Assembly (NCBI GenBank): GCA_903888345.1
Contig: CAISTG010000034.1
Span: 6,823 to 70,822 of the forward strand
Direction: 5' to 3'
Length of the DNA: 64,000 nucleotides
Origin: Candidatus Buchananbacteria bacterium
GTDB taxonomy: Bacteria > Patescibacteriota > Patescibacteriia > 2-01-FULL-39-33
The translations under genes and the position numbers were made by a program. Shown here piece after piece: positions 5,041 through 55,298 of the stretch. The notes under the pieces were generated by a model, which did not search any database, was not told the origin of the DNA, and saw only the letters and a program-made list of their open reading frames with translations. Positions within the stretch are counted from its first letter, which is position 1; each line of letters begins with the position of its first letter.

Positions 5041-6087
5041 TTAAATTTCTGGTAGAGCAAAGCCTAAAGCTTGTGCCGCCTGCCAGGTTAGTTCCAGCCG
5101 ATCGATATCAACCGGTCCCACCTCGTGTTCGCTCCAGCCTTCGGCAGCATGGACAAATGTTCCGGCATGGCAAGCATATGTTAATCCGGGCTGCAAACGC
5201 ATAGTAAAGTGCAGGTCTGTCAGAGCCGGATCATAACACAGCAATCCACCTTCGTAATTGCGAATGTCGGGACGAGAATTGATGTCGTGCCGAGTCAAGG
5301 GATTGGGAACAGCGAAATTCAAGATAATCGTTCCCTTAGGCACACGATTAAGTAATTCCGTGCTAGCCGGAATCGCTTTACCAGTCACCCATAAGGCACA
5401 ATCATGACCTTGCGTTAGCGAATCAGCATGAATCAGATTATCAGCATACTCACCGGCTTCGGACCGAATTTTTTGGAATCGATCCTGATCCTGAGTATAC
5501 ATAATAACCTTAACGCCCTGTCGCGCTAAATACAAAGCCACCGCTCGTCCGATTTTCGATGTCGACCCAGTCAGAAAGACTGGGCTAGTAATCCGAAACT
5601 TGGCAAGCAGTCCCAACACCTGCTGAATGACGACCATCGCCGTTAACGTATCGCCGTGGACAACCCACGCATGCAACCGATCACCAAGCTGGTCGACAAT
5701 CCATTTACCGCCCTGTGTAATTCGCTCATCCTTAATGAGGGCACCCAATCCAATAACATCGTTATGTTCTTGCGCATACAAAACAGCGTCAAGAATCTTC
5801 TGTCGAATCCGATCCCGTTGCTTCGGGATCACAAAGTGCCAACCAAAAGTACGAGTCAAGATGGTCATTCCCTGAACTTCTAAACCGTTGACACCATGAA
5901 AAACGAATCGATCAACAACATCATAAGACTTCTTGCCGAACAAGTAAATGATCGACATTAAAGCACACAGTGGCCAGAGCCAAAAAAAATACTTACGGTG
6001 ACTAGGATGGCGATGCAAATCACCAATCCACCAAAACAACCAATTCGAATTTTCTACCCAGTGAGCAATGAATGTCATCCGCTTCAT
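5041..6087 (-). CDS. Aar-family (acyl-ACP reductase-like / shikimate-DH-like Rossmann) oxidoreductase with N-terminal membrane segment
   Basis: Blocks align by eye with cyanobacterial acyl-ACP reductase: AQEHNDVIGLGAL, HGDTLTAMVVIQQV, TGSTSKIGRAVALYLARQGVKV nucleotide-binding motif, C-terminal GW..E block. GC-rich. Strong SD AGAGGAGG. Confidence 0.55.
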   Translation of the reverse strand: MKRMTFIAHWVENSNWLFWWIGDLHRHPSHRKYFFWLWPLCALMSIIYLFGKKSYDVVDRFVFHGVNGLEVQGMTILTRTFGWHFVIPKQRDRIRQKILDAVLYAQEHNDVIGLGALIKDERITQGGKWIVDQLGDRLHAWVVHGDTLTAMVVIQQVLGLLAKFRITSPVFLTGSTSKIGRAVALYLARQGVKVIMYTQDQDRFQKIRSEAGEYADNLIHADSLTQGHDCALWVTGKAIPASTELLNRVPKGTIILNFAVPNPLTRHDINSRPDIRNYEGGLLCYDPALTDLHFTMRLQPGLTYACHAGTFVHAAEGWSEHEVGPVDIDRLELTWQAAQALGFALPEI

Positions 6088-6196
6088 AACAATAACCTCC
6101 TCTGGCTATTTGCCGTTTCTTGATTAAAAAATTGGGTTGAGCTCGTTGCCACAAAGCAACAGCTAATTTTTAAAGTGCTTAATCAATCTTCACCAG

Positions 6197-6259
6197 ATTA
6201 TATCATAACAATATGTTTTTGTCAATGCTATTGACAAAAAATATATAATGTTGTATAGT
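6197..6259. promoter_or_regulatory. Back-to-back divergent sigma70 promoters sharing a palindromic -35 (TTGTCAAtgctaTTGACAA)
   Basis: Plus strand: TTGACA(6231-6236)-17 nt-TATAGT(6254-6259). Minus strand: TTGACA (rc of 6220-6225)-17 nt-TATAAT (rc of 6197-6202). Confidence 0.6.
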
Positions 6260-6346
6260 GACATATTGGAATTGTCTTTCCAATTAAATTGTACCAACAA
6301 CAGCCAGCGGCGATCAATCTGGATCGCTAAAAAAAAGGAATCCGCC

Positions 6347-6574
6347 ATGAAAAAGCTTCTGTCCCGCGTCATCGAAAGCGTCCTTAGCTCCATTTTTGGC
6401 CTAGGCTTGCTAATTTTCTTCATTTATGGCAGCATTACTGAGTATTTTCGCTGCTGGCTTGGCTGGAAAGACCTAGCCAGCACCATGCTCGGCTGGGCAT
6501 TCTTTGCCTCCATTGCCATCCCGCTATTCACCTTTGCTGCCGCCCGCTACATTTTAACCGGTGCTGAATACTAG
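6347..6574 (+). CDS. Small hydrophobic membrane protein (75 aa, 2-3 TM)
   Basis: Internal ATG of the 108-aa ORF preceded by AAGGAA; sequence MKKLLSRVIESVLSSIFGLGLLIFFIYG...; lies downstream of the plus promoter and is followed by a terminator. Confidence 0.45.
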   Translation: MKKLLSRVIESVLSSIFGLGLLIFFIYGSITEYFRCWLGWKDLASTMLGWAFFASIAIPLFTFAAARYILTGAEY

Positions 6575-6590
6575 CCCGCCCCGAACCTTC

Positions 6591-6620
6591 GCCGCCAGGT
6601 CCCACCTCGCGGCTTTTTTT
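6591..6620 (+). terminator. Rho-independent terminator (GCCGC...GCGGC + T7)
   Basis: gccgccaggtcccacctcgcggcttttttt lies directly after the small membrane protein gene. Confidence 0.6.
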
Positions 6621-6656
6621 AATTAAAAAACCGGTACCCTTTCGAGGATACCGGCG
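6621..6656 (-). terminator. Rho-independent terminator for the OMP gene
   Basis: Minus strand reads CCGGUAUCCUCGAAAGGGUACCGG hairpin followed by UUUUUUAAUU. Confidence 0.6.
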
Positions 6657-6669
6657 GTTAAACAAAGTG

Positions 6670-7848
6670 CTAGAACTTCCAACAGGCCGAAACGCCGGCC
6701 GTGGCCACCTTAGTCGATATTTCACGACCGTAAACTTCATTAAGGCCCCAGCCGTAGCTGAGAGAAGTAATGACGCTAAAGCTGTCAGTCGGCGAATACT
6801 TGACGCGCCCACCAACTGCCCAGCCATTGGCATCGGGAGTCATGAAATCGGCGGTCTTGGTGATGGCCTTATTCATATACGTTACCCCGCCACCAACTGT
6901 CCAGCGCTCGTTAATGACATGGCTAGCCCCAACATTGATGGCGATATTGTCTTGCCAATTGAGGCTGACCAGTTTCACGATCGGCAACTTGTCAAAGTGA
7001 ACCTGTGCCGTGTTCAGACTGGTTTCGGAATAACCGAAGTAAGTCAGCTGTGCGACAAGCAGCCAATCAGCTCGCGGCTGATAACCAACCGAGAAATCAA
7101 GCTTCTCCGGAAACTCATACTTCAGCTTCACGTTGTCGCGGACACTGATTCCAGCATTGACCGAGCAATGCCCACGCAAATCAACTGTAACCTTCGACAA
7201 GTAATTCATGCCGACAGCGACCTGATCCGTTACCTGATACATAGCGCCGATCTGAAATCCATAGCCAAAGCCAATGGTCTGCATGTCAACACGTATCGGC
7301 AGCGGCACCCGATTGATGTCGAAGGGGCCGCTCCAGTTCATCATACTCATAACAAGTACTGGACCAGCACCAATCGACAACTTGTCAGTTAACTGTTTGG
7401 ACAGGTACGGCTTAATATAGGTTCCCGAAACCAAAGTCCGCGAATCCATGCCATACCAGATGTCTTTAAAAGACGCACCGATACCAAAGTTGGTATGGAT
7501 ATCCACGCCCCAGACCATGTCGTCGCCCAGTTTTCGGGCGTATGAAACAGCCGGCAAAATATGGATCATATCCTTGGAGGTGAACTCCTGACGCCGACTG
7601 TCTTTGTAACCAAACTTGGGGCCCATGGCCTCCATGCCGATCTCAAGATAGTTATTCGAGTCAAGCAGCTGAAACTGTCGCAACTGAAGCTTGCTGCCGA
7701 GATTGTGCGGGAACTTCGGGCCATCCGGGTCAGAGCCCAGCCCGATATCTGTGGTTCCGGTCGCCGCAATACGGCTCAAACCGCCAGCCAGTGCCACCTG
7801 ACAGACACCAAACGCCAAAATAACCAGCATCAAAGTCAGCTTCTTCAT
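6670..7848 (-). CDS. Outer-membrane beta-barrel protein, FadL/OmpP1-like (hydrophobic-compound channel family)
   Basis: Signal peptide MKKLTLMLVILAFGVCQVALA; alternating amphipathic beta-strand pattern, aromatic girdle and C-terminal ...CWKF terminal Phe. GC-rich; strong SD AAGGAGAG. Confidence 0.55.
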   Translation of the reverse strand: MKKLTLMLVILAFGVCQVALAGGLSRIAATGTTDIGLGSDPDGPKFPHNLGSKLQLRQFQLLDSNNYLEIGMEAMGPKFGYKDSRRQEFTSKDMIHILPAVSYARKLGDDMVWGVDIHTNFGIGASFKDIWYGMDSRTLVSGTYIKPYLSKQLTDKLSIGAGPVLVMSMMNWSGPFDINRVPLPIRVDMQTIGFGYGFQIGAMYQVTDQVAVGMNYLSKVTVDLRGHCSVNAGISVRDNVKLKYEFPEKLDFSVGYQPRADWLLVAQLTYFGYSETSLNTAQVHFDKLPIVKLVSLNWQDNIAINVGASHVINERWTVGGGVTYMNKAITKTADFMTPDANGWAVGGRVKYSPTDSFSVITSLSYGWGLNEVYGREISTKVATAGVSACWKF

Positions 7849-7930
7849 GTTATCTCTCCTTGTTGTTTAGCCTTGCGGCTATTGTTAAGTACACTTTAGC
7901 TATGGACAATCTCGTCCAGGCCAATACATA

Positions 7931-7959
7931 TTTATATCATACTTTTATAATTTTGTCAA
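7931..7959 (-). promoter_or_regulatory. Sigma70 promoter for the OMP gene (TTGACA-17-TATAAA)
   Basis: rc reads tTTGACAaaattataaaagtatgaTATAAAt about 80 nt upstream of the SD. Confidence 0.5.
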
Positions 7960-12079: not shown

Positions 12080-12151
12080 AGCCGGCCATCAGAATCGAAC
12101 TGATAACCTACCGCTTACAAGGCGGTTGCTCTACCATTGAGCTAGGCCGGC
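12080..12151 (-). tRNA. tRNA-Thr (anticodon UGU)
   Basis: Manual cloverleaf: acceptor GCCGGCC/GGCCGGC, D-stem GCTC/GAGC, anticodon stem ACCGC/GCGGT with loop CTTGTAA, T-stem ATCAG/CTGAT, T-loop TTCGATT. No encoded CCA. Confidence 0.85.
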
Positions 12152-14910: not shown

Positions 14911-15035
14911 ATTGCAAGTTAATGAGAAGAAGCCAATTTAATAAAAAACTATCAAAATTCGCTGAACTATGCTTCTGCTGTTTATTATAACACAAATTCA
15001 ATAAAAGACCTACTAATTGTGGATAAGTTTAACCA

Positions 15036-22484: not shown

Positions 22485-23747
22485 CTAGATTTCTCGGAGA
22501 TACTTACGTCCTTTTATTTTAATTGGCAAATACTCTTGCTGTTCTTGATAATCATGATCGGGGCTATATTTATAATCCTTACCATAACCGAGATTTTTCA
22601 TTAACTTGGTCGGCGCATTACGCAAATGAATTGGCACCGGTTCATCAGCCGTTTCTTTAACATCTTTCATGACTGCATTTATCGCCTCATAAAGCTCATT
22701 TGATTTCTTGCATTTCGCTAAATACACCACGACTTGCGCCAAAATAACGTTGCATTCCGGCATACCGATAAAGTGGCAAGCCTGATATCCGGCGACCGCC
22801 TGTTCCAGTGCCTTAGAGTTAGCTAGCCCGACATCCTCGCTCGCAAAGCGAACTAACCGCCGTGCAATATATAATGGATCTTCGCCACCAGCGAGCATTC
22901 GTCCTAACCAATACAAGGCCGCATCAGCATCACTACCACGCAAAGATTTGTGCAAGGCCGAAATAATATTATAATGCTGATCGCCGGTCTTATCGTATAA
23001 ATGCGCATTTCGCTGCAATGACTCCTTAATTAGCGCTTGAGATAATTTAATTATACCAGATTTCAGTGGTTTCGTCGCTTTGACAGAAATCTCTAACACG
23101 TTCAGCGCCGTCCGCGCATCACCATTAGAGAGTAACGCCAAATAACTAATCGCCTCTTCATCGATTTTAATTTTTAAGTAACCTAAGCCCCGCTCCTTAT
23201 CAGCGACAGCCAACTTGATGATATTAGCAATATCAGCTTCGGCTAATTGTTCTAACACAAAAACGCGCGAGCGTGATAATAACGCGGAGTTAACTTCAAA
23301 GGAAGGATTCTCTGTCGTCGCCCCGATTAAAATTACTGTACCATCCTCAACATGCGGCAATAAAGCGTCTTGTTGCGCTTTATTCCAACGATGAATTTCA
23401 TCAATAAATAAAATAGTGCGGCGTTGCTGGAATTTTAACTGTTCTTTTGCTTCGCTGATTAGTTTTTTTAATTCCGCCACGCCCGAGCTGACCGCCGAAA
23501 AGGAAACAAAAATTGAACCGGTAGCGCCAGCAATAATTCGGGCCAAAGTAGTCTTGCCTGTACCTGGCGGGCCCCAAAAGATCATGGACGGGATTTGATC
23601 ACTTTCAATTAAGCGCTTGAGTAATTTGCCCTCACCTACAATTTGCTCCTGCCCAAAAAACTCGGCTAAATTCCGAGGTCTAATTCGATCCGCCAAAGGC
23701 CCTTCTTTGGCCTGTAACGCCTCCAAATTAGCGTCAAATAAATCCAC
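22485..23747 (-). CDS. rarA: Replication-associated recombination protein A (AAA+ ATPase)
   Basis: Walker A GPPGTGKTT, Walker B ILFIDEIHR, and MgsA C-terminal domain. Confidence 0.9.
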   Translation of the reverse strand: MDLFDANLEALQAKEGPLADRIRPRNLAEFFGQEQIVGEGKLLKRLIESDQIPSMIFWGPPGTGKTTLARIIAGATGSIFVSFSAVSSGVAELKKLISEAKEQLKFQQRRTILFIDEIHRWNKAQQDALLPHVEDGTVILIGATTENPSFEVNSALLSRSRVFVLEQLAEADIANIIKLAVADKERGLGYLKIKIDEEAISYLALLSNGDARTALNVLEISVKATKPLKSGIIKLSQALIKESLQRNAHLYDKTGDQHYNIISALHKSLRGSDADAALYWLGRMLAGGEDPLYIARRLVRFASEDVGLANSKALEQAVAGYQACHFIGMPECNVILAQVVVYLAKCKKSNELYEAINAVMKDVKETADEPVPIHLRNAPTKLMKNLGYGKDYKYSPDHDYQEQQEYLPIKIKGRKYLREI

Positions 23748-23874
23748 GGTAACTGATTATGACTAATACCCTAATCATACTTCAATTCGAGTTTTTAGTA
23801 AAATTATGATAATTTATTTTATCTAAATTTAGATAATTTTAATCTAACTAAAAATGTTACAGTGGATAAGTATC

Positions 23875-23903
23875 TTGACAAAATTTGATATATATGATAT
23901 AAT
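23875..23903 (+). promoter_or_regulatory. Perfect-consensus sigma70 promoter (TTGACA-17-TATAAT)
   Basis: ttgaca aaatttgatatatatga tataat. An upstream DnaA-box-like AGTGGATAA (rc TTATCCACT) ends 5 nt 5' of the -35. Confidence 0.65.
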
Positions 23904-24013
23904 TATAATTATCGAAAGAGTACCTTCCCAAGCACTTCGACCAGACAGTTTCTGGCTAGAAGCAAATCAACTATCACCTGGCAGCAAAAATGCCAGACCA
24001 CAGGGAGAAAGAA

Positions 24014-24511
24014 ATGAAGCAGAACAACGAACTCCGCCATGCCCTGACCATCGTGACCGTCATCATGACTGGTTTGCTGTTTATTGGGAAGTTCTTCCCG
24101 ATCAACCAGCACCCGGAACTCCAATGGCTGCAACACGATATCACGCTGTTTGGCTGGATGCTGAGCCCAATCGTCCTGATGCTGTTCTCGGCCTGGAGCT
24201 TCCAGTTCCTGACCGAGAGCTGGAGCGTGGTTTTGCGATACGGTGCCAAGAGCTTCCAGCTGTCCCCACCTTGGTGGCTTGGCCTGATCGCGGGACTAGT
24301 CATAATTGTGCTGACGCTGGTCAACGCAGCTCAGCTAGCCTTGCGAACAATCAACCTTGATCCGGTATCTCAGCAAACCGGGGGGGTTGTTCCGATTTTG
24401 GCAGTTGATGCCCTACTCATCGTCGGGCTCTCACTTGGTTGGTCGCTGTTTAAGACCAATGCGGAAATTGCCAACTTCCTCCATCCCGAAAACCCGCCCT
24501 TCAATATCTGA
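24014..24511 (+). CDS. GC-rich 4-TM membrane protein of unknown function
   Basis: 165 aa from the ATG with SD GGGAGA; an alternative ATG at 23990 gives 173 aa. About 58% GC versus about 38% in flanking genes. It has its own promoter and terminator. Confidence 0.55.
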   Translation: MKQNNELRHALTIVTVIMTGLLFIGKFFPINQHPELQWLQHDITLFGWMLSPIVLMLFSAWSFQFLTESWSVVLRYGAKSFQLSPPWWLGLIAGLVIIVLTLVNAAQLALRTINLDPVSQQTGGVVPILAVDALLIVGLSLGWSLFKTNAEIANFLHPENPPFNI

Positions 24512-24534
24512 GGGCACCATTCAAAGCACACAAA

Positions 24535-24590
24535 AGCCGTCCCCCACCAATCTTCACAGATTGCCACGGGACGGCTTTTAAAATTTTATT
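24535..24590 (+). terminator. Hairpin terminator (AGCCGTCCC...GGGACGGCT + T-rich)
   Basis: Follows the cassette gene. Reading the other strand, the same hairpin follows the stop of 24593..24964. Confidence 0.5.
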
Positions 24591-24592
24591 GA

Positions 24593-24964
24593 TTACTTTT
24601 TCTCTAAGCGCGTATTAACCAACTTCACCACCTCATCTAATTTCCAGTTAGACTTAATCAGATATTCAAAAACTCCTCGCTCTAATGCTTCGGCCGTTTT
24701 ATCCGCCTCCGATAAGTTAGTTAAAATAATCACGGGCACTTTTTCCCCGAGCGGGTCTTGTCGCAATAGCTTCAACATCGTCAACCCATCCATGATGGGC
24801 ATCACAATATCTAACAGAATTAAATCTGGTAGAAACTTTTTAAAAACTGTTAAACCCTCTTGACCATTTTTGGCTACCTTAACATTAAACCCTCTTTTAA
24901 TAAACTTGGCCGATAGGACGCCCCTTAATGATTTCTCATCTTCTACAATTAAAATTTTTTTCAT
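24593..24964 (-). CDS. Stand-alone response-regulator receiver domain (CheY-like)
   Basis: 123 aa; acidic pocket ILIVEDE, phospho-acceptor region DLILLDIVMP, conserved K near the end. Confidence 0.85.
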   Translation of the reverse strand: MKKILIVEDEKSLRGVLSAKFIKRGFNVKVAKNGQEGLTVFKKFLPDLILLDIVMPIMDGLTMLKLLRQDPLGEKVPVIILTNLSEADKTAEALERGVFEYLIKSNWKLDEVVKLVNTRLEKK

Positions 24965-38330: not shown

Positions 38331-38388
38331 GCGGAATTGAACCGCCGTCACGCGAACCTTCACCCTGGTAAATAGGTGTCGGGATGAC
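38331..38388 (-). pseudogene. tRNA 3'-half-like fragment (variable region + T-arm GGCGG/TTCAATT/CCGCC + acceptor 3' strand CAGCCCG-A); no 5' half found
   Basis: Abuts the 3' end of tRNA-Pro. The sequence differs from the tRNA-Pro and tRNA-Thr 3' halves, and the cloverleaf cannot be completed. Confidence 0.35.
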
Positions 38389-38461
38389 CCGATTTGAACG
38401 GGCGACCTCGTCGTCCCGAACGACGCGCGCTACCATCTGCGCTACACCCCGAAAATTTAAC
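38389..38461 (-). tRNA. tRNA-Pro (anticodon CGG)
   Basis: Manual cloverleaf: C1:G72 pair typical of bacterial tRNA-Pro, D-stem GCGC/GCGC, anticodon stem CGTCG/CGACG with loop TTCGGGA, T-loop TTCAAAT. Confidence 0.85.
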
Positions 38462-40817: not shown

Positions 40818-40979
40818 AATCTTAAGATTATTTAATTATTAATTTTTAAAAACCTTATTTTCATTGGGGGTTTTATCCACACCCTCAATTCAATATAATC
40901 ATTATATAGTAAAAACAAAGAAAAGGCTAATATTTTGTCAATGTTTAATTCCAGCCTCAAGGCATTAAACTAACCCGAC

Positions 40980-41008
40980 TTGACATTTTGCTAATTTTTT
41001 GCTAAAAT
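40980..41008 (+). promoter_or_regulatory. Sigma70 promoter (TTGACA-17-TAAAAT) for the plus-strand paralog operon
   Basis: cTTGACAttttgctaattttttgcTAAAATagcgg lies about 70 nt upstream of 41079. Confidence 0.5.
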
Positions 41009-41078
41009 AGCGGGAAGTGTCTGATAGTAAATCAGGCCAAAAGGACCTTGAAAATTCAACGGAAAAGGAACTGCCATA

Positions 41079-41606
41079 ATGGAAGCAACTAGCGATGTCA
41101 GTACTGGTCGGATTTCTACATTGCGCCTGTACAGCGACACGGCCGCCAAGATCAATCAGCGCAAGTTTAATCTGATTATATCCTATCTAGGCGAACAACT
41201 AGCCGATGCTCTGGCAATAATTGGAATTCTCGCTTTGTCCTGGTTCTATCAACCAAGTGACTTGAGTGAATTAATTCCCTGCCTGATCACTGCTCTCTTG
41301 ATGGTTATGCCACTAGGGACCACGTTATTGATACTTAGGTCGGCGCGAAAATCAAAGAAACTCAAGCAAGAACTGGAGACACTTTTGCCAGCGATGCTAA
41401 TCGAAACGCGCGATTTATTTCTACGCGACGAACAAAGCAAGCAAGACACGGACTTGGTCTTAATTGAACCCGGTCTTCATCCGCTCGAGGATCTCGACGG
41501 TACCAGATTCATCATCAAAGGAACTGAAATATACGGTGACTGGAAAGAACTTAAACGCCATGACAAAATTCAAAACGGCGGCATTCGCTTGATCGAAAAA
41601 CTGTAA
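41079..41606 (+). CDS. Paralog 1 of a 2-TM membrane protein family with conserved PGL(H/Y)PLE motif
   Basis: 175 aa; ...LIEPGLHPLEDLDGTRFIIKGTE. Region is GC-richer (~50% by eye). Confidence 0.5.
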   Translation: MEATSDVSTGRISTLRLYSDTAAKINQRKFNLIISYLGEQLADALAIIGILALSWFYQPSDLSELIPCLITALLMVMPLGTTLLILRSARKSKKLKQELETLLPAMLIETRDLFLRDEQSKQDTDLVLIEPGLHPLEDLDGTRFIIKGTEIYGDWKELKRHDKIQNGGIRLIEKL

Positions 41607-41629
41607 TTCAACCAACAGGGAGAAAAACC

Positions 41630-42160
41630 GTGGGTATTTGGAAAAACGCGAAGTGGCTAAATTTTGAACAGAGATTCATCAATATCTCAGAGCCGGGTGA
41701 GATCCTAACAGCGCGGCTTTATGATGATGTCGTTGCTAGCAACCTGAAGCAGCACTACGACAATTGGCGGCTCTGCTTCAAGCTTATGTTCAGTATTATT
41801 GTTGCGGCAATTATATTGCTGGTACTATGCTTTCAGTTTCATTGTGTTTCCATCTGGCTCGTTCTAATTATCATTATGACCTTCGTGCCGATCCAATGTA
41901 TTGCCTCGCAAAATGCCATTCAGTACCGCTGCTTACTGGAACCGCAACTACCAGCATTGCTAGTCAACACACCAAGAATTCTCTTGGGCGAAGAAAACAA
42001 TCGTGGTGCTGGCGAAGTCATCGTCGGTCCCGGCCTCTACTCGTATATGCCGACTGACGATCCTTCGGTTTTCCGATTTAAGCGTGGCACACTAGTTTTT
42101 CATGCGAACATCGCTGCTGGTGCTGGATCGCAACTTAAATTGATCACCAAAATCTGGTAA
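41630..42160 (+). CDS. Paralog 2 (GTG start) of the same family
   Basis: 176 aa; SD AGGGAG 8 nt upstream of GTG; ...LLEPQLPALLV...VIVGPGLYSYMPTDD. Confidence 0.5.
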   Translation: MGIWKNAKWLNFEQRFINISEPGEILTARLYDDVVASNLKQHYDNWRLCFKLMFSIIVAAIILLVLCFQFHCVSIWLVLIIIMTFVPIQCIASQNAIQYRCLLEPQLPALLVNTPRILLGEENNRGAGEVIVGPGLYSYMPTDDPSVFRFKRGTLVFHANIAAGAGSQLKLITKIW

Positions 42161-42186
42161 TCAGCCACCAGCAAGAAAGGCAAGCA

Positions 42187-42657
42187 ATGAACGACTCAAA
42201 GATATCCGACGGCCAACTCAAGACAACGACCTACTTTTCTAGCCAACAGGCTCGGGAATGCAAAAGAAAATATGATGAAATAATCAATTGTCGCTCTTAT
42301 GCGAGACAATTAGTATTGACCCTCGCACTAGCTTCCGGAATCTTGCTATTCTCTCCTACTATTATTGGCGCCAAAATTTTGATTGGCGTGTCAATCTTAT
42401 CAATTGGCATGTATTCCTTCTTCCGCAGTGCCGTTGCCAAACGCGAAGCTGAGCTCAAGCCGCTCTACCCCGCACTGCTGGTTAGAGACGATACTTGTCT
42501 CCGATTTTCCGGGGAAGCGATTACTCTGAAGCCGGGATTATACCCGCTAGAAGAAACCGGCATGGAAACGATCACGATTAGCGGCACCAAACGCACTATG
42601 TTGCGAAGTGAGCTGGGGCAGATTATCAAGCTCAATACCGTGACTCTACTGAATTAA
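42187..42657 (+). CDS. Paralog 3 of the same family
   Basis: 156 aa; RSAVAKREAELKPLYPALLVRDD...ITLKPGLYPLEETG aligns with paralog 1. Confidence 0.5.
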   Translation: MNDSKISDGQLKTTTYFSSQQARECKRKYDEIINCRSYARQLVLTLALASGILLFSPTIIGAKILIGVSILSIGMYSFFRSAVAKREAELKPLYPALLVRDDTCLRFSGEAITLKPGLYPLEETGMETITISGTKRTMLRSELGQIIKLNTVTLLN

Positions 42658-42714
42658 CTCTGAACTTTCAAAATAACCCCGAACGCCTAACAGCGTCCGG
42701 GGCTTTTTATTTTT

Positions 42715-43470
42715 TTAATATTTTTTATTACCAATGTTCCAGAAATAATCGTAAATACTTTTGACGCTACCGACAATTGCTTGATGATGGCAAGCGACGA
42801 CAAACGGCGGCTTGCCCGAAAATAAAACCAGCAAATTTCCGACAAACCAAATTGAAGCGGTAAAATTAATTTCTTTTGGCAACTCCCTGATTTCAATATT
42901 TTGTGCCGATAATTTTTTATTATCAATTCCAGCAAATGTTCCGATTGGTACTAAAGTCTTAGTAATAATCCCCTGCTTTTTCTTTAAACTTAAAAGCACT
43001 CGGTTAAAATCTTCCGAAAATATTTTTTGATAATTGCCCTGATGTGGGGCATCAATCGTATAAATAACCGACTTAGCCGGCAAATTAATCAATAACTTTT
43101 CAATAAAATTCTTAATCCCTTTTTGCGTATCATAAATATTAGCAAAAGGAAAATTTGCCTCGGAACGATACAACTCCGACAACGATTCTTCAAGTGAACT
43201 TGCGAGTGTTCGTTTATGATCAAAAATAGTTTGTAAAGTCTTCGGCGACTCCACCCAATAATAAGTCATCCCCTTGTAATGATTGGTCGACAAATAATTC
43301 TCACTAGCTAAGTGTTCCAAATTATCAATGGTCGTCGTTCGCGGCAAGCCGACTTTCTTAGCAACTCTAGAGGCTGGTGCCTCGCCGAGCTCAGTTAAGG
43401 CCAAATAGACCTTAATGGCATTATCCTTTAAACCTAACTCTTTGAGGATTTTTTTGAGTTGAACTGGCAT
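42715..43470 (-). CDS. TrmB-like HTH transcriptional regulator
   Basis: 251 aa; N-terminal winged HTH (LKDNAIKVYLALTELGEAPASRVAKKVGLPRTTTIDNLEHL) plus a C-terminal effector-like domain. Confidence 0.55.
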   Translation of the reverse strand: MPVQLKKILKELGLKDNAIKVYLALTELGEAPASRVAKKVGLPRTTTIDNLEHLASENYLSTNHYKGMTYYWVESPKTLQTIFDHKRTLASSLEESLSELYRSEANFPFANIYDTQKGIKNFIEKLLINLPAKSVIYTIDAPHQGNYQKIFSEDFNRVLLSLKKKQGIITKTLVPIGTFAGIDNKKLSAQNIEIRELPKEINFTASIWFVGNLLVLFSGKPPFVVACHHQAIVGSVKSIYDYFWNIGNKKY

Positions 43471-43669
43471 AAATATGGGTTATTTCGCTGTTGCTGTCGG
43501 AAAAATCCGACAGTAGTAGCCGTATTTATTATCTAAATTTAAATAAAAAAATAATATGACTTCTTGACTTTCCCGAGAATTTCAGCTAAAATAATCAATC
43601 ACTGCTATTATTATAGCAGTAAATGATTGAACATTAAAAACGGTCTAAAACCCGAAAAGGAACAGCGTT

Positions 43670-44722
43670 ATGAAAAAGAACCTGATCGTCTTCCCTGGAA
43701 CCTTTTGCCCACCCACTTACGGTCACCATGAAATCGTCAAAATGGCCGCGGAAATTTTCCCTTGTGGCGTTACGATTATGGCTTCGGCCAATCCCGATAA
43801 AGACAACTGGTTTACTCAAGAAGAACGCGCCGCCATGTGGCAAGCTTATGACCTGCCCAGTAATGTTCGCGTAACGACCCTAGATCAGATGCAACGTGAA
43901 GAAGTTGATTTTACTACTATGGTCATGGTTCGCGGTATTCGCAATCAAGACGACTATATTCATGAGCAATCCGTCATGGAACTAAATTTTAATGGTTATG
44001 GAATTAGCAAATACTTCTATATCATGACCACCGGCGAATTCCGCGAGCTGTCCTCATCGAGAGCCCGCGCTGCCGCCAGTGAACTGCGCTTAGCTGATCT
44101 AGCCAAGTATGTGCCACCGCAGATTGCAGGACAACTACTTGAATACGTCTTGCAAGCCAAAAATATTTTCTTGGTCGTCGGACGACCGGGATCAGGTAAG
44201 TCAACTTGGTTAAAGTCAGTGGTTGAAGTTGATCCTTCTGCCTACCATCTTGATGGCGATCAACTGAATAAAGAGCTGCGACCCGAACTAGTAGCAGCCT
44301 TCCCTGGCGTCGACCTGATCGAACTGGCTATGACTAACGAAGCCGCCTTGCTCGAAGTATTGGCCCCCAAATGGCTGGCACTACTGGGCGAACGGCTGAA
44401 ACAAGTACCGCCTGGTCGCAACGTCTACGTTGAAGCCGCTTATGGACTTGAAGCCAACAAACAACTTTACCGCTATCTCGGCAGTAAAGTCATTCATGTT
44501 GGTTGCCAAGATCCGGCAGTGAATCAAGAGCGGATTGCCGCTCGTGGCACCAGCCGACATCAAGCCTTCGTCGAGAAGATTCCTGATCTTTGCGAGTCGG
44601 TTATGATCGCCGCTTCCGAAAAGCTATCCCTCAAACTCGTGGACACTTCCGGCAGTCTGGAAGATCTCAAACAAACTACCAAAGACTTTGTCAGCGACCT
44701 CCATCAAGGAACCTCATCATGA
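43670..44722 (+). CDS. Fusion protein: cytidylyltransferase-like nucleotidyltransferase (HxGH) + P-loop kinase domain (NadR-like NMNAT/nucleoside-kinase or PPAT-kinase)
   Basis: N-terminal LIVFPGTFCPPTYGHHEIV (G-x-F-x-P-x-H-x-GH Rossmann motif); C-terminal Walker A VVGRPGSGKSTWL. Confidence 0.6.
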   Translation: MKKNLIVFPGTFCPPTYGHHEIVKMAAEIFPCGVTIMASANPDKDNWFTQEERAAMWQAYDLPSNVRVTTLDQMQREEVDFTTMVMVRGIRNQDDYIHEQSVMELNFNGYGISKYFYIMTTGEFRELSSSRARAAASELRLADLAKYVPPQIAGQLLEYVLQAKNIFLVVGRPGSGKSTWLKSVVEVDPSAYHLDGDQLNKELRPELVAAFPGVDLIELAMTNEAALLEVLAPKWLALLGERLKQVPPGRNVYVEAAYGLEANKQLYRYLGSKVIHVGCQDPAVNQERIAARGTSRHQAFVEKIPDLCESVMIAASEKLSLKLVDTSGSLEDLKQTTKDFVSDLHQGTSS

Positions 44723-45387
44723 AAACTGAAATCAAAGCCAGGTTGAAACAGCGCTTTGCGCTGCTGTGTAAAAGATTTGCGGAAGCCAAGCAACTTACCG
44801 ATACTGATGCCAAGATTGAGAAGTGGTGGAAAGTTCTGGATGAATGTTATAGTGCTAGCCAGCGTGCTTACCACAATTGGGAACACGTTGCCGCGTGCTT
44901 AGAGGAGTTCGATCGGGTCATTCACCTGTTCGATAATCCCCTTGCCGCTGAAGCCGCAATATTCTTCCATGACGCGAAATACGATCCTTTCGCCACCGAC
45001 AATGAAGCCGTTAGTGCGGAAATGCTCGGAGAATTTTACGCTGACTTTGGTTGGCCGGACACTATTGCCAAGAAACTGGTTAATAGCACCGACCATAAGG
45101 CGACCAGCAAAGATAACGACGAGCAATTGCTCTGCGATATCGACCTGGCAATTCTGGGTCAGCCGTGGCCTCGCTACATCTGTTACGCCCAGGATATTAG
45201 AAAAGAATATCAAGCGGTACCTCTGGCTGCTTATCGCACCAAACGGATCGAGGTTTTGAAGAAACTTCGCGACCGTGAACCACTATTTCAGACGGAATAT
45301 TTCCAGCGCCAGTATAAGCTGAACGCCGAGAGCAATCTGACTGCCGAAATCATGGCCCTGGCGCATGAGCAGTTCCCTAACTACTAA
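44719..45387 (+). CDS. HD-domain metal-dependent phosphohydrolase (start overlaps upstream stop, ATGA)
   Basis: 222 aa from MKTEIKA; HNWEHV and FFHDAKYD motifs (H...HD...D); translationally coupled to 43670..44722. Confidence 0.55.
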   Translation: MKTEIKARLKQRFALLCKRFAEAKQLTDTDAKIEKWWKVLDECYSASQRAYHNWEHVAACLEEFDRVIHLFDNPLAAEAAIFFHDAKYDPFATDNEAVSAEMLGEFYADFGWPDTIAKKLVNSTDHKATSKDNDEQLLCDIDLAILGQPWPRYICYAQDIRKEYQAVPLAAYRTKRIEVLKKLRDREPLFQTEYFQRQYKLNAESNLTAEIMALAHEQFPNY

Positions 45388-52740: not shown

Positions 52741-53511
52741 TTATTTCGTTAAAATCTTAAAACCATCGTCAGTCACTGCTACCGTATGTTCAAAATGCGC
52801 CGACAAGGATTCGTCAGCCGTGACAATCGTCCAACCATCGTCGAGCGTATCAACCTCCCAGCCACCAGCATTAACCATCGGTTCGATCGCAATTACCATA
52901 CCAACCTCTAAGGTCAAATCGCGAGTATCATAAGCTGGCCAATAATTAGGAACCTGTGGATCTTCATGCGCCGCAAAACCAACACCATGACCACACAATT
53001 GCCGCACCACCGTGAAACCATTCTTTTCGACGACTGACTGAATGGCTTTACCGATATCTGATAATTTGTTACCTGGTTTTACCTTTTTAATGCCAGCGCC
53101 AAGCGCTTCTTGAGTGACTGACATTAATTTCTTGGCCGCCGGAGAAATTTTTCCCACGGCAACCGTCCGAGCCATGTCAGTAAATAATCCTTTATACTTT
53201 AAACCACAATCCAAACCAACAATATCACCAGCTTCTAATTTTCTATCAAAGGTTGGTATACCATGAACCACTTCATCATTAACCGAAACACAAAGCGCGG
53301 CCGGATAAACGCTCTCGGCCCAAGCCGCTTCATAATTCTTAAAACTACCCTCAGCCCCAGCCGCCTCAATTAACTTTTCGGCATAATCATTAAGCTCACC
53401 GGTAGTAATCCCCGGCTTAACCTTTTCGATGACTAAATCCATAATCTTCGACAGGATCTTCCCGCCCTCAGCAATGGTCTTTATTTGTTCTTTAGTTTTA
53501 TATTTAATCAT
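52741..53511 (-). CDS. map: Methionine aminopeptidase type I
   Basis: 256 aa; metal ligands in the conserved D...D...H...E...E pita-bread fold. Confidence 0.9.
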   Translation of the reverse strand: MIKYKTKEQIKTIAEGGKILSKIMDLVIEKVKPGITTGELNDYAEKLIEAAGAEGSFKNYEAAWAESVYPAALCVSVNDEVVHGIPTFDRKLEAGDIVGLDCGLKYKGLFTDMARTVAVGKISPAAKKLMSVTQEALGAGIKKVKPGNKLSDIGKAIQSVVEKNGFTVVRQLCGHGVGFAAHEDPQVPNYWPAYDTRDLTLEVGMVIAIEPMVNAGGWEVDTLDDGWTIVTADESLSAHFEHTVAVTDDGFKILTK

Positions 53512-53773: not shown

Positions 53774-54028
53774 ACAAAAGGATATTTCTTGCTCTTGTCA
53801 CTTTTTTCTAGAAAAAAGTAACCAAAAAAGTCGCGACGGCATAAAACATGGCCAAATTTTAAACTTCATTCACTAAACCAAAAACGCTGTCGCTGTTTTG
53901 GTTTGCCCTAACGGGCCGTTCATTCCCGTTTAAAATTGGCACAAGTTTTATTCATGTCGCAAGACGGGGACGGGAACGAAAAAAGTGTCTAAATTTAAAC
54001 AAAATAAATAATATTGTGGATAAACTAC

Positions 54029-54057
54029 TTGACAAAATATAATAGCCGTGCTATACT
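54029..54057 (+). promoter_or_regulatory. Sigma70 promoter (TTGACA-17-TATACT) with perfect DnaA-box-like TGTGGATAA ending 5 nt upstream
   Basis: tgtggataaactacTTGACAaaatataatagccgtgcTATACT; same arrangement as the promoter at 23875. Confidence 0.6.
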
Positions 54058-54163
54058 TATTTATTAACCTAATGACATTAGTCAAAGGGTTTATGGCTCA
54101 AAACGGTTAAGTTGACCGTTAAAAGCCCCGAAAACAGTACCTACAACCCAAGGAGACAGTATC

Positions 54164-54553
54164 ATGGCACCGAAGAACCAGAAGAGCGACAGCAAGGACG
54201 GCAAGGGCAAGGGCGAAGCGAAGCGCAGCGTTTTCGATGGAAACGCACCGCGCGAAAGCAAGTGCCTCACCCCCAAACCGGCGTACAGCCTGGAGAGCGT
54301 GATGCGCGAACTGCGGCGGCGGAAGAACGTTGCCCAGGCCGTCGTCCCGGTCCCCAAGAGCGACCGGACCCTTACAGTCATCTTTCACACACCCAAGGCT
54401 TTGGGCATCCGGATGCTCGGCGGCCTCGACTATCTCGCCAAGGCCCACGGCTACGGTTCGCTCCTGATCAGCCAGGAGGAGTTCAATGACCTGGTCAAGG
54501 CCAAGAAGATCAAGCCGTTCGTCGCGTTGAAGGATGCGACGGCCGCCGACTAA
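54164..54553 (+). CDS. GC-rich small basic protein of unknown function (129 aa, Lys-rich disordered N-terminus)
   Basis: Strong SD AAGGAGA 8 nt upstream of ATG; about 60% GC; own promoter and terminator. Confidence 0.55.
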   Translation: MAPKNQKSDSKDGKGKGEAKRSVFDGNAPRESKCLTPKPAYSLESVMRELRRRKNVAQAVVPVPKSDRTLTVIFHTPKALGIRMLGGLDYLAKAHGYGSLLISQEEFNDLVKAKKIKPFVALKDATAAD

Positions 54554-54574
54554 TCCCAAGCGTCCGCACATATA

Positions 54575-54616
54575 CGCCCCGAGCTAGCAATAGCCCGGGG
54601 CGTCATCTTTTTATTT
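54575..54616 (+). terminator. Rho-independent terminator (GCCCCG...CGGGGC + T-run)
   Basis: cgccccgagctagcaatagcccggggcgtcatctttttattt. Confidence 0.6.
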
Positions 54617-55298
54617 AACTTTTATTCCAATCTATCTTACTTCTCAAGTCAGTCACCAATAATTTAATTATTTGTTGCTGAACCTTTTCAATTGATTGCT
54701 CGCCATTAATCTTGCTTAACAATCCCTGCTCTTCATAAAACTTGACGATAGCGTCAGCCTCACGATGATAAACCTCTAATCGTGATTTAACGGTTTCTTC
54801 TTTATCATCATCACGTTGAAATAATGATTCACCGCAAGTATCGCAAATCAATTGATCTTTTGGTGGTGAATATTTCAAATGCCAAGTATGGCCATTTTTA
54901 CAAACCCGGCGCCCGGACATCCGTTCAACGATGGCCTCATCAGAAACATTAATTAAGAAAACTCGGTCAACAGTCGTGATCTGGCTCAGATATTGGGCCT
55001 GTTCTAAAGTCCGTGGAAAACCATCCATCGCATAGCCAAGACTGCAATCATCTTTTTTAATTCTGTCGGCCACCAAACGATTAACTAATTCGGTCGGCAC
55101 TAATTTCCCATTATCCATATATGAGGCCACCTCTTGAGCTAAGGGATTGTTGGTTTCCGCTTTTATGTTTTGTAAAATAACACCAGTAGAAATATGAGGA
55201 ATATCAAAAGTATTAGCGACTAATTCAGTCTGCGTCCCCTTGCCAGAAACTGGTGGTCCCAAAAAAATAAGTTCGAACGGTTTGTCATTTAAAGGCAT
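54615..55298 (-). CDS. adk: Adenylate kinase (long, zinc-lid form)
   Basis: P-loop GPPVSGKGTQ; lid with CKNGH...CDTCG zinc ligands. Confidence 0.9.
   Translation of the reverse strand: MPLNDKPFELIFLGPPVSGKGTQTELVANTFDIPHISTGVILQNIKAETNNPLAQEVASYMDNGKLVPTELVNRLVADRIKKDDCSLGYAMDGFPRTLEQAQYLSQITTVDRVFLINVSDEAIVERMSGRRVCKNGHTWHLKYSPPKDQLICDTCGESLFQRDDDKEETVKSRLEVYHREADAIVKFYEEQGLLSKINGEQSIEKVQQQIIKLLVTDLRSKIDWNKS

Follow-up and report, generated by a model that had tools for sequence, protein, structure and literature searches.

Does the GC-rich block beside rarA on this Candidatus Buchananbacteria contig represent foreign DNA, a faulty join, or a gene that belongs where it is found? In the window, by which we mean the whole stretch of 64,000 nucleotides that was analysed, the block stands on the minority strand (plus) between rarA (MgsA_C and AAA domains) and a response-regulator operon, and this second flank comprises two receiver-domain genes, a histidine kinase and a type IV pilus cluster (N_methyl, T2SSF, T2SSE). 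The original prediction had described a promoter, a Shine-Dalgarno (SD) sequence, a 165-aa ORF with four transmembrane (TM) segments, a hairpin terminator and the rarA and pilus/signalling flanks, and all of these were found in place. Its description of the block as a self-contained cassette was also borne out: the unit runs from a promoter of its own through leader, SD and ORF to a terminator, and the entire ~0.8 kb is missing in three relatives.

The predicted sigma-70-type promoter (23875-23903, plus strand) consists of a -35 TTGACA (extended form TTGACAAAAT), a 17-nt spacer and a -10 TATAAT at 23898-23903, preceded by a TG at 23896-23897. It agrees with TTGACA-17-TATAAT at 12/12 consensus positions and carries the TG of an extended -10. 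The perfect-consensus promoter was thus correctly recognised, but it is not a one-off: eight sites with at most one mismatch from TTGACA-17-TATAAT occur in the window compared with 0.72 expected, and the promoter is therefore of the host's own strong-promoter type. A predicted 5' leader of ~105 nt (23910-24013, plus strand), counted from an inferred transcription start, leads to the SD GGGAGA (24003-24008, plus strand), which lies 5 nt before the ATG at 24014. The ORF at 24014-24511 (plus strand) encodes the 165-aa protein with four hydrophobic segments. A predicted intrinsic terminator follows at 24532-24590, with no strand assigned, and is composed of the stem AAAAGCCGTCCC...GGGACGGCTTTT (24532-24579) and a T-rich tail. 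Its hairpin has a folding energy of -26.8 kcal/mol (z -4.6) and an A-tract and a T-tract on its sides. Because of this A-tract/T-tract symmetry, dual termination is suggested, and the terminator may also end the convergent response-regulator gene (end 24593).

The block is enriched in GC as predicted, while the figure of ~58% did not hold: the span 23850-24590 measures 49.3% and the ORF 54.0%, and 58.5% is only reached in the peak 200-nt window. The surroundings had been put at ~38%, and the whole window was measured at 40.3%. The other reading frames, said to be open all across the block, are open for 42-168 codons and not for the whole of it. GC1, GC2 and GC3 of the ORF are 0.55, 0.37 and 0.70, and its GC3 is the highest among the 70 listed ORF-genes (window median 0.386, robust z 5.6); the sole higher value (0.85) belongs to the ORF of a second cassette, which was scored separately. 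Codons ending in C or G are strongly preferred (CTG, ATC, AGC, GCC, ACC). The coding signal goes beyond an open frame, since it comprises the GC1/2/3 pattern, four hydrophobic helices and protein-level homology to two database proteins, P0002 and P0003. As read from the sequence, the block is genuinely a gene, which encodes a small membrane protein of four helices and has its own predicted transcription signals.

At the same place, a GC-rich gene for a membrane protein was found in five related Buchananbacteria-like assemblies, namely L088, L211, L212, L213 and a JGI contig (source of P0003). Each of the first four presents TTGACAAAAT...TGnTATAAT/TATACT/TATATT, a leader, a membrane ORF and a hairpin terminator; their slot ORFs have a GC content of 0.47-0.61 and a GC3 of 0.52-0.76 in loci of 37-44% GC. 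On the JGI contig synteny is complete, with the gene order dnaE ... QueH, NUDIX, rarA, then an 81-aa and a 156-aa gene on the other strand, then two response regulators and a histidine kinase. A 57% GC ORF in a 42% GC locus, behind the promoter TTGACA-17-TATGAT, was found in L082 (source of P0002). Empty sites occur in L086/L087, L089 and L210, where the gap between rarA and the response-regulator gene is 139, 106 and 104 bp, respectively. A four-way alignment of the slot with the empty sites of L086, L089 and L210 placed the present/absent segment at approximately 23776-24591 (plus strand). In a RarA tree (neighbour-joining, without support values) the empty-site genomes form one clade nested among filled lineages. 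Because the three empty-site relatives group as one clade, this implies that the slot gene was probably ancestral and was lost once, in a single sub-clade. We put at roughly 60% the probability that the block is an accessory gene which is resident and transcribed autonomously, in a conserved 'expression slot' oriented divergently from rarA within a Buchananbacteria-like clade of Patescibacteria.

The promoter and terminator of the slot have been kept far better than the gene between them. Between the window and L088, rarA DNA is 79% identical, the promoter 88-93% and the cargo proteins 17%. The 88-93% identity extends over a 43-nt stretch composed of the promoter and a box upstream of it, despite saturated synonymous sites between both genomes. 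The terminator resembles that of L088, GCCGTCCC...GGACGGC, with an alignment z of 4.9, compared with 1.2 for the ORF (no detectable ORF DNA similarity). Judged by these alignments, the slot shell, i.e. promoter plus terminator, is conserved, and the cargo is barely or not recognisably related. The likeness of the cargo also departs from the RarA tree, as the window protein is closer to P0003 (RarA 80%) than to the cargo of L088 (RarA 87%). BLASTP of the window protein against the slot cargo of L088, L211, L212 and L213 gave an E value of 0.13, and hhalign gave 0.012 over 20 columns; these values do not establish homology and do not separate a single diverging gene from different genes exchanged in one slot.

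Such a pattern might arise if the slot were a recombination hot spot in which unrelated GC-rich membrane genes are swapped, with promoter and terminator serving as homology arms or landing pad, and if the cargos of the window, L088, L211, L212 and L213 were different genes instead of one fast-evolving gene. The contrast between the conserved shell and unalignable ORF DNA, and a cargo similarity that does not follow the RarA tree, would fit this explanation. So would the cargos of L211, L212 and L213, which have no detectable similarity to each other or to other cargo, the range of cargo lengths (123-218 aa) and the variable presence of an upstream peptide ORF (33-81 aa). However, every cargo is a small polytopic membrane protein, and the motif [KR]GYxxHWxxGLxxGLxxM is common to the L088 cargo, P0002 and the window protein at the same position and thus links the three. 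Moreover, no recombinase, attC-like site or direct repeats were found at the borders, and no donor pool is visible in protein databases. Exchange of unrelated genes is the strongest competitor of a resident gene, and we consider it rather unlikely.

Hypervariable loci in conserved flanks that are exchanged by homologous recombination are well known, for example capsule/O-antigen loci, pilin/surface-antigen loci and orphan bacteriocin-immunity genes. The slot is similar to them in its conserved flanks and regulatory shell around extremely divergent coding content, in a cargo similarity that runs off the species tree, and in its small polytopic membrane proteins, which at times stand behind a short hydrophobic peptide ORF. 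Unlike them, it is a single short gene and not a multigene locus, the window contains no recognisable bacteriocin, transporter or toxin partner and no family match, and the slot gene has a GC3 excess of ~30 points. To our knowledge, such an excess is not a feature of hypervariable loci.

The 165-aa protein itself has few relatives. Among 5.8 billion plus 1.84 billion proteins, besides the query (P0001), only the remote homologues P0002 (E 2e-6 in the set of 1.84 billion representatives) and P0003 were detected, and none outside the same genomic context. P0001, P0002 and P0003 all lie in low-GC contexts adjoining response-regulator genes, and the P0003 contig also contains rarA. No further family members were found in a metagenome scan with the protein alignment, in a viral scan, or by tblastn against 80 rarA loci of GTDB species representatives. 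No Pfam, NCBIfam, PHROGs or PADLOC match was obtained for the 165-aa protein, the protein of the second cassette or the cargo of the relatives. The AlphaFold model, built from a three-sequence alignment, consists of four long helices with a pLDDT of 61.6, and Foldseek of this low-confidence model against the PDB returned matches at E > 2 only. An immunity- or toxin-like role had been proposed. The hypervariability of the cargo and the small upstream TM-peptide ORF of some relatives (33-81 aa, hydrophobic) are hints that point that way; the window has no such partner ORF. Because of the extreme divergence, a role in conflict or envelope interaction (immunity, exclusion, host contact) is suggested. 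A cargo turnover far ahead of that of the regulatory shell is what a gene of conflict or host interaction would be expected to show.

The original prediction had listed foreign DNA, possibly from a high-GC host, first among its candidates. Could the gene have been acquired recently from a higher-GC donor and not yet have ameliorated to the composition of its host? A GC3 of 0.70 against the median of 0.39, a codon dialect (CTG, ATC, AGC, GCC) unlike that of the bulk genes, and the presence of the unit in some relatives and its absence in others would agree with a transfer. The other GC-rich genes of the window also include a FadL/TodX-type outer-membrane barrel of plausibly Gram-negative origin. 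As a recent event, however, a transfer is unsupported. There is no homologue beyond the same Patescibacteria context among the 5.8 + 1.84 billion proteins, the viral contigs and PHROGs. The outer lineages are filled and the empty sites are one clade, so that the distribution fits an ancestral gene with one loss and requires no gain. The promoter and the upstream sites are AT-rich and form a lineage-specific module. No mobility genes, tRNA target or repeats were found: the nearest tRNAs lie at 12080 and 38378, and the borders of the cassette showed no convincing target-site duplications, terminal inverted repeats or flanking direct repeats. Furthermore, the slot genes are still GC-rich in every lineage, even with synonymous sites saturated between the genomes. 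With no donor homologues, no gain-requiring distribution and no mobility signatures, the block does not resemble a recent islet, and we regard this origin as improbable.

Phage morons were reportedly described by Juhala, Hendrix and colleagues in 2000 in the lambdoid phages HK97 and HK022. They are autonomous promoter-ORF-terminator units between prophage genes, and they frequently carry a small membrane protein that acts in exclusion or fitness. The present unit is similar in that a single ORF has its own sigma-70 promoter and intrinsic terminator (here as sequence-level matches), its composition differs from that of the flanking genes (GC3 0.70 vs 0.39), it lies between genes that are direct neighbours in L086, L089 and L210, and its cargo is a small membrane protein. 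It differs in that its flanks are rarA, NUDIX, QueH and the two-component/pilus cluster instead of phage or prophage genes, in that no PHROG match and no relative or match of the promoter type in viral contigs was found, in being apparently ancestral to a bacterial clade rather than a sporadic insertion, and in an upstream regulatory module shared with other such units. Integron cassettes are promoterless, arrayed next to intI/attI, and end in attC. The unit resembles them as a modular single ORF that differs between relatives, encodes a protein without a known family and has a 3' hairpin. Unlike them, it is solitary, placed between rarA and the response-regulator gene behind a promoter of its own, its 3' hairpin is terminator-like, with a T-tract, and no integrase was seen among the genes examined.

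Why, then, is the gene GC-rich? The genomes compared are saturated at four-fold sites (32-35% identity), and FadL-like orthologues nevertheless keep a GC3 of 0.62 and 0.58. We infer that genes of this class maintain their GC-rich codon dialect and that it is not the fading trace of a transfer. A gene-specific GC and codon regime that outlasts synonymous saturation is not explained by the reasoning of foreign DNA followed by amelioration, and for screens of horizontal transfer or contamination it is a caution that a GC-rich islet in these genomes can be a long-term resident. Expression-linked codon bias was considered and ruled out, as ribosomal-protein, secY, adk and map genes have a GC3 of 0.33-0.40. 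When mRNA structure was compared with synonymous shuffles, z values of -1.6 (not significant) for the 165-aa ORF, -2.4 for the second cassette and -4.5 for L088 were obtained, and the controls gave -0.2 and +0.8. Stability or structure of the mRNA is the only candidate cause of the GC richness that is favoured even weakly.

Many GC-rich islands of AT-rich genomes are RNA genes, and the block might be a structured non-coding RNA gene with an ORF that merely follows from GC richness. In favour of this, the block has a promoter and a terminator of its own and several open frames, and the mRNA folds somewhat better than its synonymous shuffles, clearly so in L088. On the other hand, the codon-position periodicity is strong (GC3 0.70, GC2 0.37), the SD is correctly spaced from the ATG, the hydrophobicity pattern is that of four helices, the similarity to P0002 and P0003 exists at the protein level with unalignable DNA, and no Rfam family scored below E 0.9. 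An RNA gene is therefore very improbable. The permissive Rfam scan of 23700-24700 gave weak chance matches only, the best being Collinsella-1, whose 13.2 bits (E 0.9) stay below the gathering score of 35, well short of a riboswitch or cis-leader assignment, and the scan of the whole window at gathering thresholds detected two tRNAs only. The leader does fold (-24.1 kcal/mol, z -2.0), with hairpins at 23935-23962 and 23978-23996. In the minimum-energy fold an anti-SD UUCCC (23925-23929) pairs with GGGAG of the SD (24003-24007), and a hairpin with an A-rich loop directly 5' of the SD also occurs in L088 and L212.

An artefact of assembly or binning, in which a fragment of a higher-GC organism was joined chimerically into a Patescibacteria contig, has a negligible probability: the composition does change sharply on both sides of the block, and a short ENA contig (L001, 823 bp) starts at 23918, within the AT-rich promoter region, but the AT-rich promoter/terminator frame of the ORF is homologous to the L088 slot, the same architecture occupies the same slot beside rarA in independent assemblies from other samples (L088, L211, L212, L213 and the JGI contig with P0003), and L001, which may not be an independent assembly, is 100% identical over the ORF, the terminator and the response-regulator junction and reproduces this right junction exactly.

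The region upstream of the promoter links the unit to other loci. An 18-bp palindrome, TTATCTAAATTTAGATAA, lies at 23819-23836 (no strand) with the core CTAAATTTAG at 23823-23832. This core, 29 nt upstream of the GTGGATAA box, is a candidate site of a dimeric regulator. The 9-mer AGTGGATAA (23861-23869, plus strand) is located at the promoter, where 5 nt separate it from the -35 downstream; its reverse complement TTATCCACT agrees with TTATCCACA at 8/9 positions, i.e. within one mismatch. We take TTATCCACA to be the DnaA-box consensus, and AGTGGATAA, on its sequence, to be a candidate DnaA box. The arrangement GTGGATAA-N5-TTGACA occurs exactly twice in the window, both times at plus-strand GC-rich cassettes, and also at the L088 cassette. 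At the second cassette and in L088 the box matches the DnaA box at 9/9 positions. It is absent or otherwise spaced in the slot promoters of L212, L211, L213 and L082.

The second cassette (53989-54603, plus strand) lies between map and adk and is of the same kind as the unit beside rarA. It begins with the palindrome CTAAATTTAA (53989-53998), followed by the perfect DnaA-box match (54015-54023, read as TGTGGATAA), a promoter at 54029-54057, a ~105-nt leader with the SD AAGGAGA, an ORF at 54164-54553 (plus strand; GC 62%, GC3 85%) for a 129-aa basic protein, and a terminator hairpin at 54574-54603. The common plan is a three-part module: palindrome CTAAATTTAG, ~29 nt, DnaA-box-like TGTGGATAA, 5 nt, TTGACAAAAT, 12 nt and TGnTATAAT. 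From the window and public metagenomes, 48 full promoters of this type were recovered; as the metagenome pattern search demanded the box plus the -35, independent observations are confined to the palindrome, the -10 and the GC content of the cargo. The palindrome core (at most one mismatch) is present upstream of the box in 17/48 promoters, compared with 0.36 expected from shuffles, and 15 of these 17 come from public metagenomes, ahead of unrelated GC-rich ORFs. The gap between palindrome and box is 26-29 nt in 12/17, most commonly 28-29 nt, and a T precedes GTGGATAA in 37/48 promoters. Cargo GC exceeds the locus background in 24/30 cases, and where a palindrome is present and an ORF was called it does so without exception (13/13). 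The cargo proteins are mutually unrelated, save near-duplicate loci and one 56%-identical pair (L169/L176). In the literature on Patescibacteria promoters, DnaA boxes, GC-rich genes and codon usage, no description of such a module was found. A defined promoter architecture that is common to many unrelated accessory genes is testable.

DnaA boxes (TTATCCACA) are found near the promoters of dnaA, nrdAB and mioC in E. coli and of sda and ywlC in B. subtilis. As in such DnaA-regulated promoters, a DnaA-box-like 9-mer stands directly upstream of the -35 at a fixed distance of 5 nt. Unlike in these promoters, a separate 10-bp palindrome lies ~29 nt further upstream, and the downstream genes are orphan accessory genes rather than genes of replication or nucleotide metabolism. 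In the slot beside rarA, the housekeeping sigma factor would transcribe the unit at a high level, and it might be modulated by one or two DNA-binding proteins, of which one would bind the palindrome as a dimer and the other, DnaA or a different factor, the box. The anti-SD/SD pairing may perhaps tune translation, and the product would be inserted into the cytoplasmic membrane.

Patescibacteria have tiny genomes full of genes of unknown role, and their regulation is hardly known. As a speculative extension, to which we give little weight, Buchananbacteria-like Patescibacteria might possess an undescribed regulon of stand-alone 'expression slots', with GC richness actively maintained as functional. 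Each slot would combine a 10-bp palindrome, a DnaA-box-like site and a near-consensus extended promoter, and would drive one GC-rich orphan gene of fast turnover, which encodes a membrane, secreted or basic protein and in most cases runs opposite to the genes around it. The GC3 of the slot genes, 0.5-0.86 in genomes of ~40% GC, would be actively kept; one possibility is that their mRNAs are structured and resistant to AU-directed decay, with expression tied to the replication status via DnaA. A phage link of the module was rejected: in the 12 viral contigs that contain the promoter pattern, it looks like a chance match in frame, with neither a -10 nor GC-rich cargo. In L107, the box plus -35, without the palindrome, precedes an rpoB gene of normal GC, and the box alone is therefore no marker of the GC-rich class.

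The cassette beside rarA has a sigma-70 promoter, TTGACA-17-TATAAT, at 23875-23903 on the plus strand, which matches the consensus at 12 of 12 positions and carries a TG-extended -10. Next comes a leader of roughly 105 nt that contains two hairpins; its UUCCC at 23925-23929 is able to pair with the predicted Shine-Dalgarno sequence GGGAGA (24003-24008, plus strand), 5 bases ahead of the ATG at 24014. The plus-strand ORF (24014-24511) has 165 codons and encodes four hydrophobic helices. A terminator hairpin with a 12-bp stem, bordered by an A-tract on one side and a T-tract on the other, lies at 24532-24579 (-26.8 kcal/mol, z -4.6); being symmetric, it is probably shared with the convergent response-regulator (RR) gene. 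The cassette is neighbored by rarA on one side and by two receiver-domain genes, histidine kinases and the type IV pilus cluster on the other. The promoter, ribosome-binding site, four-helix ORF, strong terminator and location were hence all as described in the original prediction. The predicted block of about 58% GC in surroundings of about 38% is indeed GC-rich but was somewhat overstated, as the span 23850-24590 has 49.3% GC, the ORF 54.0% and only the top 200-nt stretch 58.5%, against 40.3% for the entire window.

The GC1/GC2/GC3 values of the ORF are 0.55/0.37/0.70. This GC3 is the highest among the 70 listed ORF-genes of the window (median 0.386, robust z 5.6) and is exceeded only by that of a second cassette (0.85), which was scored apart from the 70. 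Codon choice is wholly unlike that of the bulk genes: Leu TTA 0 vs 0.43, Leu CTG 0.46 vs 0.08, Ile ATC 0.64 vs 0.22 and Ser AGC 0.50 vs 0.08. Because codon-position periodicity, four hydrophobic helices and protein-level homologues coincide in the plus-strand ORF, it is a genuine gene. A tRNA-Pro(CGG) gene is located at 38378-38451; it decodes CCG, the Pro codon preferred by GC-rich genes (0.50-0.73 of their Pro codons vs 0.34 in the bulk).

A search of 5.8 billion clustered proteins returned only the 165-aa protein itself, on an 823-bp ENA contig. As this contig is 100% identical to 23918-24740, the right cassette junction is reproduced, and together with similar filled sites in relatives this refutes the suggestion of an assembly artefact. 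One distant relative, P0002 (E 2e-6, 31% identity), came from exhaustive HMMER against 1.84 billion representatives, and a profile search supplied another, P0003. The protein is therefore nearly an orphan, but both homologues occupy a similar genomic setting. The 20-kb contig that carries P0003 has the gene order of the window (dnaE, protease, three unknowns, QueH, NUDIX, rarA); beyond rarA come two genes of 81 and 156 aa in the reverse orientation, then RR, RR and a histidine kinase. The P0002 ORF has 57% GC within a 42% GC locus, is preceded by TTGACA-17-TATGAT and is convergent with an RR gene.

RarA comparison placed the window within Patescibacteria, with 'Candidatus Buchananbacteria' MAGs as the nearest named relatives. 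The window is rich in near-consensus TTGACAAAA...TGnTATAAT promoters (8 at ≤1 mismatch vs 0.72 expected). Thus, the perfect promoter of the cassette is the host's own strong-promoter type, and these eight sites rule it out as an imported or synthetic oddity.

The slot between rarA and the RR gene was compared across the rarA neighborhoods of RarA proteins 79-87% identical to that of the window. It is filled in four relatives (L088, L211, L212 and L213), each of which combines a promoter of the TTGACAAAAT...TGnTATAAT type with a leader and a hairpin terminator. The enclosed ORFs encode membrane proteins of 123-218 aa, with GC 0.47-0.61 and GC3 0.52-0.76 in loci of 37-44% GC, and in two of these slots a 33-aa hydrophobic ORF lies upstream. 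More broadly, L082 (the P0002 locus), L211, L213 and the P0003 contig each have a hydrophobic ORF (33-81 aa) that lies ahead of the main gene or runs into its start; the window cassette has no such small upstream ORF. The slot is empty in L086/L087, L089 and L210, where the RR gene is 104-139 bp from rarA. In a neighbor-joining tree of RarA the three empty genomes, 89-91% identical mutually, form one tight clade nested among filled lineages. A single loss of an ancestral unit is by far the more parsimonious account, compared with five or six gains at one site. The empty site of L086 (5862-6000) contains cGACAAAAT followed by a hairpin terminator; the former may be what is left of the TTGACAAAAT -35, and this would be consistent with deletion of the cassette.

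Foreign DNA was also proposed originally, and the deviant composition invites that reading. Four-fold degenerate sites between the window and its relatives' genomes are saturated (32-35% identical), so the lineages are old. A GC-rich relic should have faded under the host's AT bias, yet all filled slots are GC-rich. Taken with homologues in the same context and the apparent single loss of an ancestral unit, a recent import is not supported, and a relic of recent transfer is an unlikely source of the GC richness.

Segment-wise comparison with the closest relative, L088 (RarA 87% identical), separated a conserved shell from divergent cargo. The rarA DNA is 79% identical and the 43-nt box-plus-promoter 88-93%; alignment z is 5.2 for the upstream intergenic region, 4.9 for the terminator and 2.7 for the leader, but 1.2 for the ORF, which is not alignable. 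The two slot proteins are 17% identical (BLASTP E 0.13). Profile comparison of the cargo recovered just a 20-column motif, [KR]GYxxHWxxGLxxGLxxM, at the start of the third helix, and the L211, L212 and L213 cargo had no detectable similarity to any other cargo compared. Moreover, cargo likeness departs from the RarA tree, the window protein being nearer to P0003 (RarA 80%) than to L088. These patterns would fit both one gene diverging at an extreme rate and different membrane-protein genes exchanged inside a conserved shell.

In the window and in L088 the shell includes a box 5 nt from the -35. The window contains exactly two copies of GTGGATAA-N5-TTGACA, at the rarA-side and second cassettes, and among 89 loci scanned the only copy was at the L088 cassette. 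Read on the other strand, TGTGGATAA gives the DnaA-box consensus TTATCCACA; the match is 8/9 at the rarA-side cassette and 9/9 at the other two. Scanning metagenomes with GTGGATAA-N5-TTGACAAAAT gave 120 stretches, and a -10 at the correct distance was also present at 48 distinct sites across all loci gathered to that stage, including both window sites and the L088 cassette. Many of the 48 share a sample series with the slot relatives, and five lie on the 958-kb contig of L086. The downstream ORF is GC-richer than its own locus in 24/30 cases (GC3 up to 0.86), and the encoded proteins are mutually unrelated, except for near-duplicate loci and the L169/L176 pair (56% identical). A second conserved element upstream of the box, the 10-bp palindrome CTAAATTTAG, was not part of the search pattern and was found with ≤1 mismatch at 17/48 sites vs 0.36 expected, a count reached by 0/200 shuffles. 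Its gap to the box is commonest at 28-29 nt; in the rarA-side cassette the palindrome is exact and the gap is 29 nt. Conservation does not extend to the spacers that separate the blocks, so the likeness is one of putative binding sites, as in a regulon, rather than of a copied mobile promoter. The case generalises to a class of stand-alone, GC-rich, fast-turning-over genes behind a shared three-part promoter in this uncultured clade; literature searches turned up no account of the module or of a Patescibacteria gene class marked by high GC.

At another locus, L107, an rpoB gene with an ordinary GC of 0.40 stands behind TGTGGATAA-N5-TTGACAAAAT and a TATTAT -10, but the palindrome is missing. 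The box alone is therefore no marker of the GC-rich class, and some Patescibacteria may use box plus -35 in strong promoters generally. The L211 slot has GGGGATAA 16 nt from the -35 and an inverted TTATCCACA closer to rarA, the L213 slot has AGTGGATAA 17 nt from the -35, and the slot promoters of L212 and L082 have no box. Perfect DnaA boxes number 3 in the window vs 0.65 expected. One belongs to the second cassette; the other two (TTATCCACA) are also intergenic, at 15018-15026 just 3' of dnaE and at 40873-40881 in the divergent region before a promoter at 40980; neither has a -35 at 5-nt spacing.

The second cassette (53989-54603, plus strand), likewise a stand-alone unit with one gene, lies between map (52741-53511) and adk (54615-55298), beside the ribosomal-protein and secY cluster. 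It combines a palindrome, CTAAATTTAA, a perfect DnaA box, TTGACA-17-TATACT (54029-54057, plus), a structured leader of about 105 nt and a strong terminator (54574-54603, plus). Its ORF (54164-54553, plus; GC 62%, GC3 85%) encodes a basic, lysine- and arginine-rich orphan of 129 aa. Cargo proteins at two module loci, L120 and L195, have similarly basic N-termini; BLASTP gave no match between them and the orphan at E ≤ 1e-3.

As for working, the strong promoter would drive high-level transcription, with the palindrome as the putative site of a dimeric modulator and the box as that of DnaA or some other protein; the leader possibly tunes translation, and the four-helix product would insert into the membrane. 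In its hypervariability, strong promoter and small polytopic product, and in the short hydrophobic ORF that relatives have upstream, the slot resembles, by analogy, immunity, exclusion or host-contact genes. Family models gave no support for a specific function of the 165-aa protein, and its predicted structure was too weak for structure searching. Like a phage moron, the cassette has its own promoter and terminator, deviant composition and a position between genes adjacent elsewhere; unlike a moron, it does not reside in a phage. It is similar to hypervariable loci exchanged via conserved flanks and to promoters with DnaA boxes. It is neither an integron cassette nor a gene under riboswitch control, and it belongs to no catalogued defence family.

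Expression-linked codon bias as the cause of GC richness was ruled out by the ribosomal-protein genes (GC3 0.33-0.40). GC-rich ORFs fold better than shuffles of their own synonymous codons (z -1.6 rarA-side, -2.4 second cassette, -4.5 L088; controls -0.2 and +0.8), a hint that selection acts on the structure or stability of the mRNA, though not a significant one for the rarA-side ORF. In the region 5041-7959, near-consensus promoters stand back-to-back at 6197(-) and 6231(+), with another at 7931(-), and leaders of about 90-105 nt. Behind them lie a GC-elevated CER1-like_C/SDR protein (5041-6087), a GC-elevated small ORF (about 6352-6574) and a FadL/TodX-type beta-barrel with a signal peptide (6670-7848, GC3 0.62), which is unexpected in a Patescibacterium. 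Orthologues at another locus, L103, are 67% and 59% identical by global alignment and have GTGGATAA-box promoters. In two lineages whose synonymous sites are saturated, the FadL-like gene retained GC3 values of 0.62 and 0.58.

Plus is the minority strand (10/70 window genes), and nearly all GC3 outliers are on it. Judging by GC skew and by the 60:10 strand bias of the genes, these GC-rich genes would be transcribed head-on to replication. A plus-strand five-gene cluster (40980-45387; GC3 0.49-0.58) lies behind TTGACA-17-TAAAAT (40980) and encodes mostly orphans; genes 41079 and 42187 are paralogues (30% identical), and one product carries CTP_transf_like and AAA_33.
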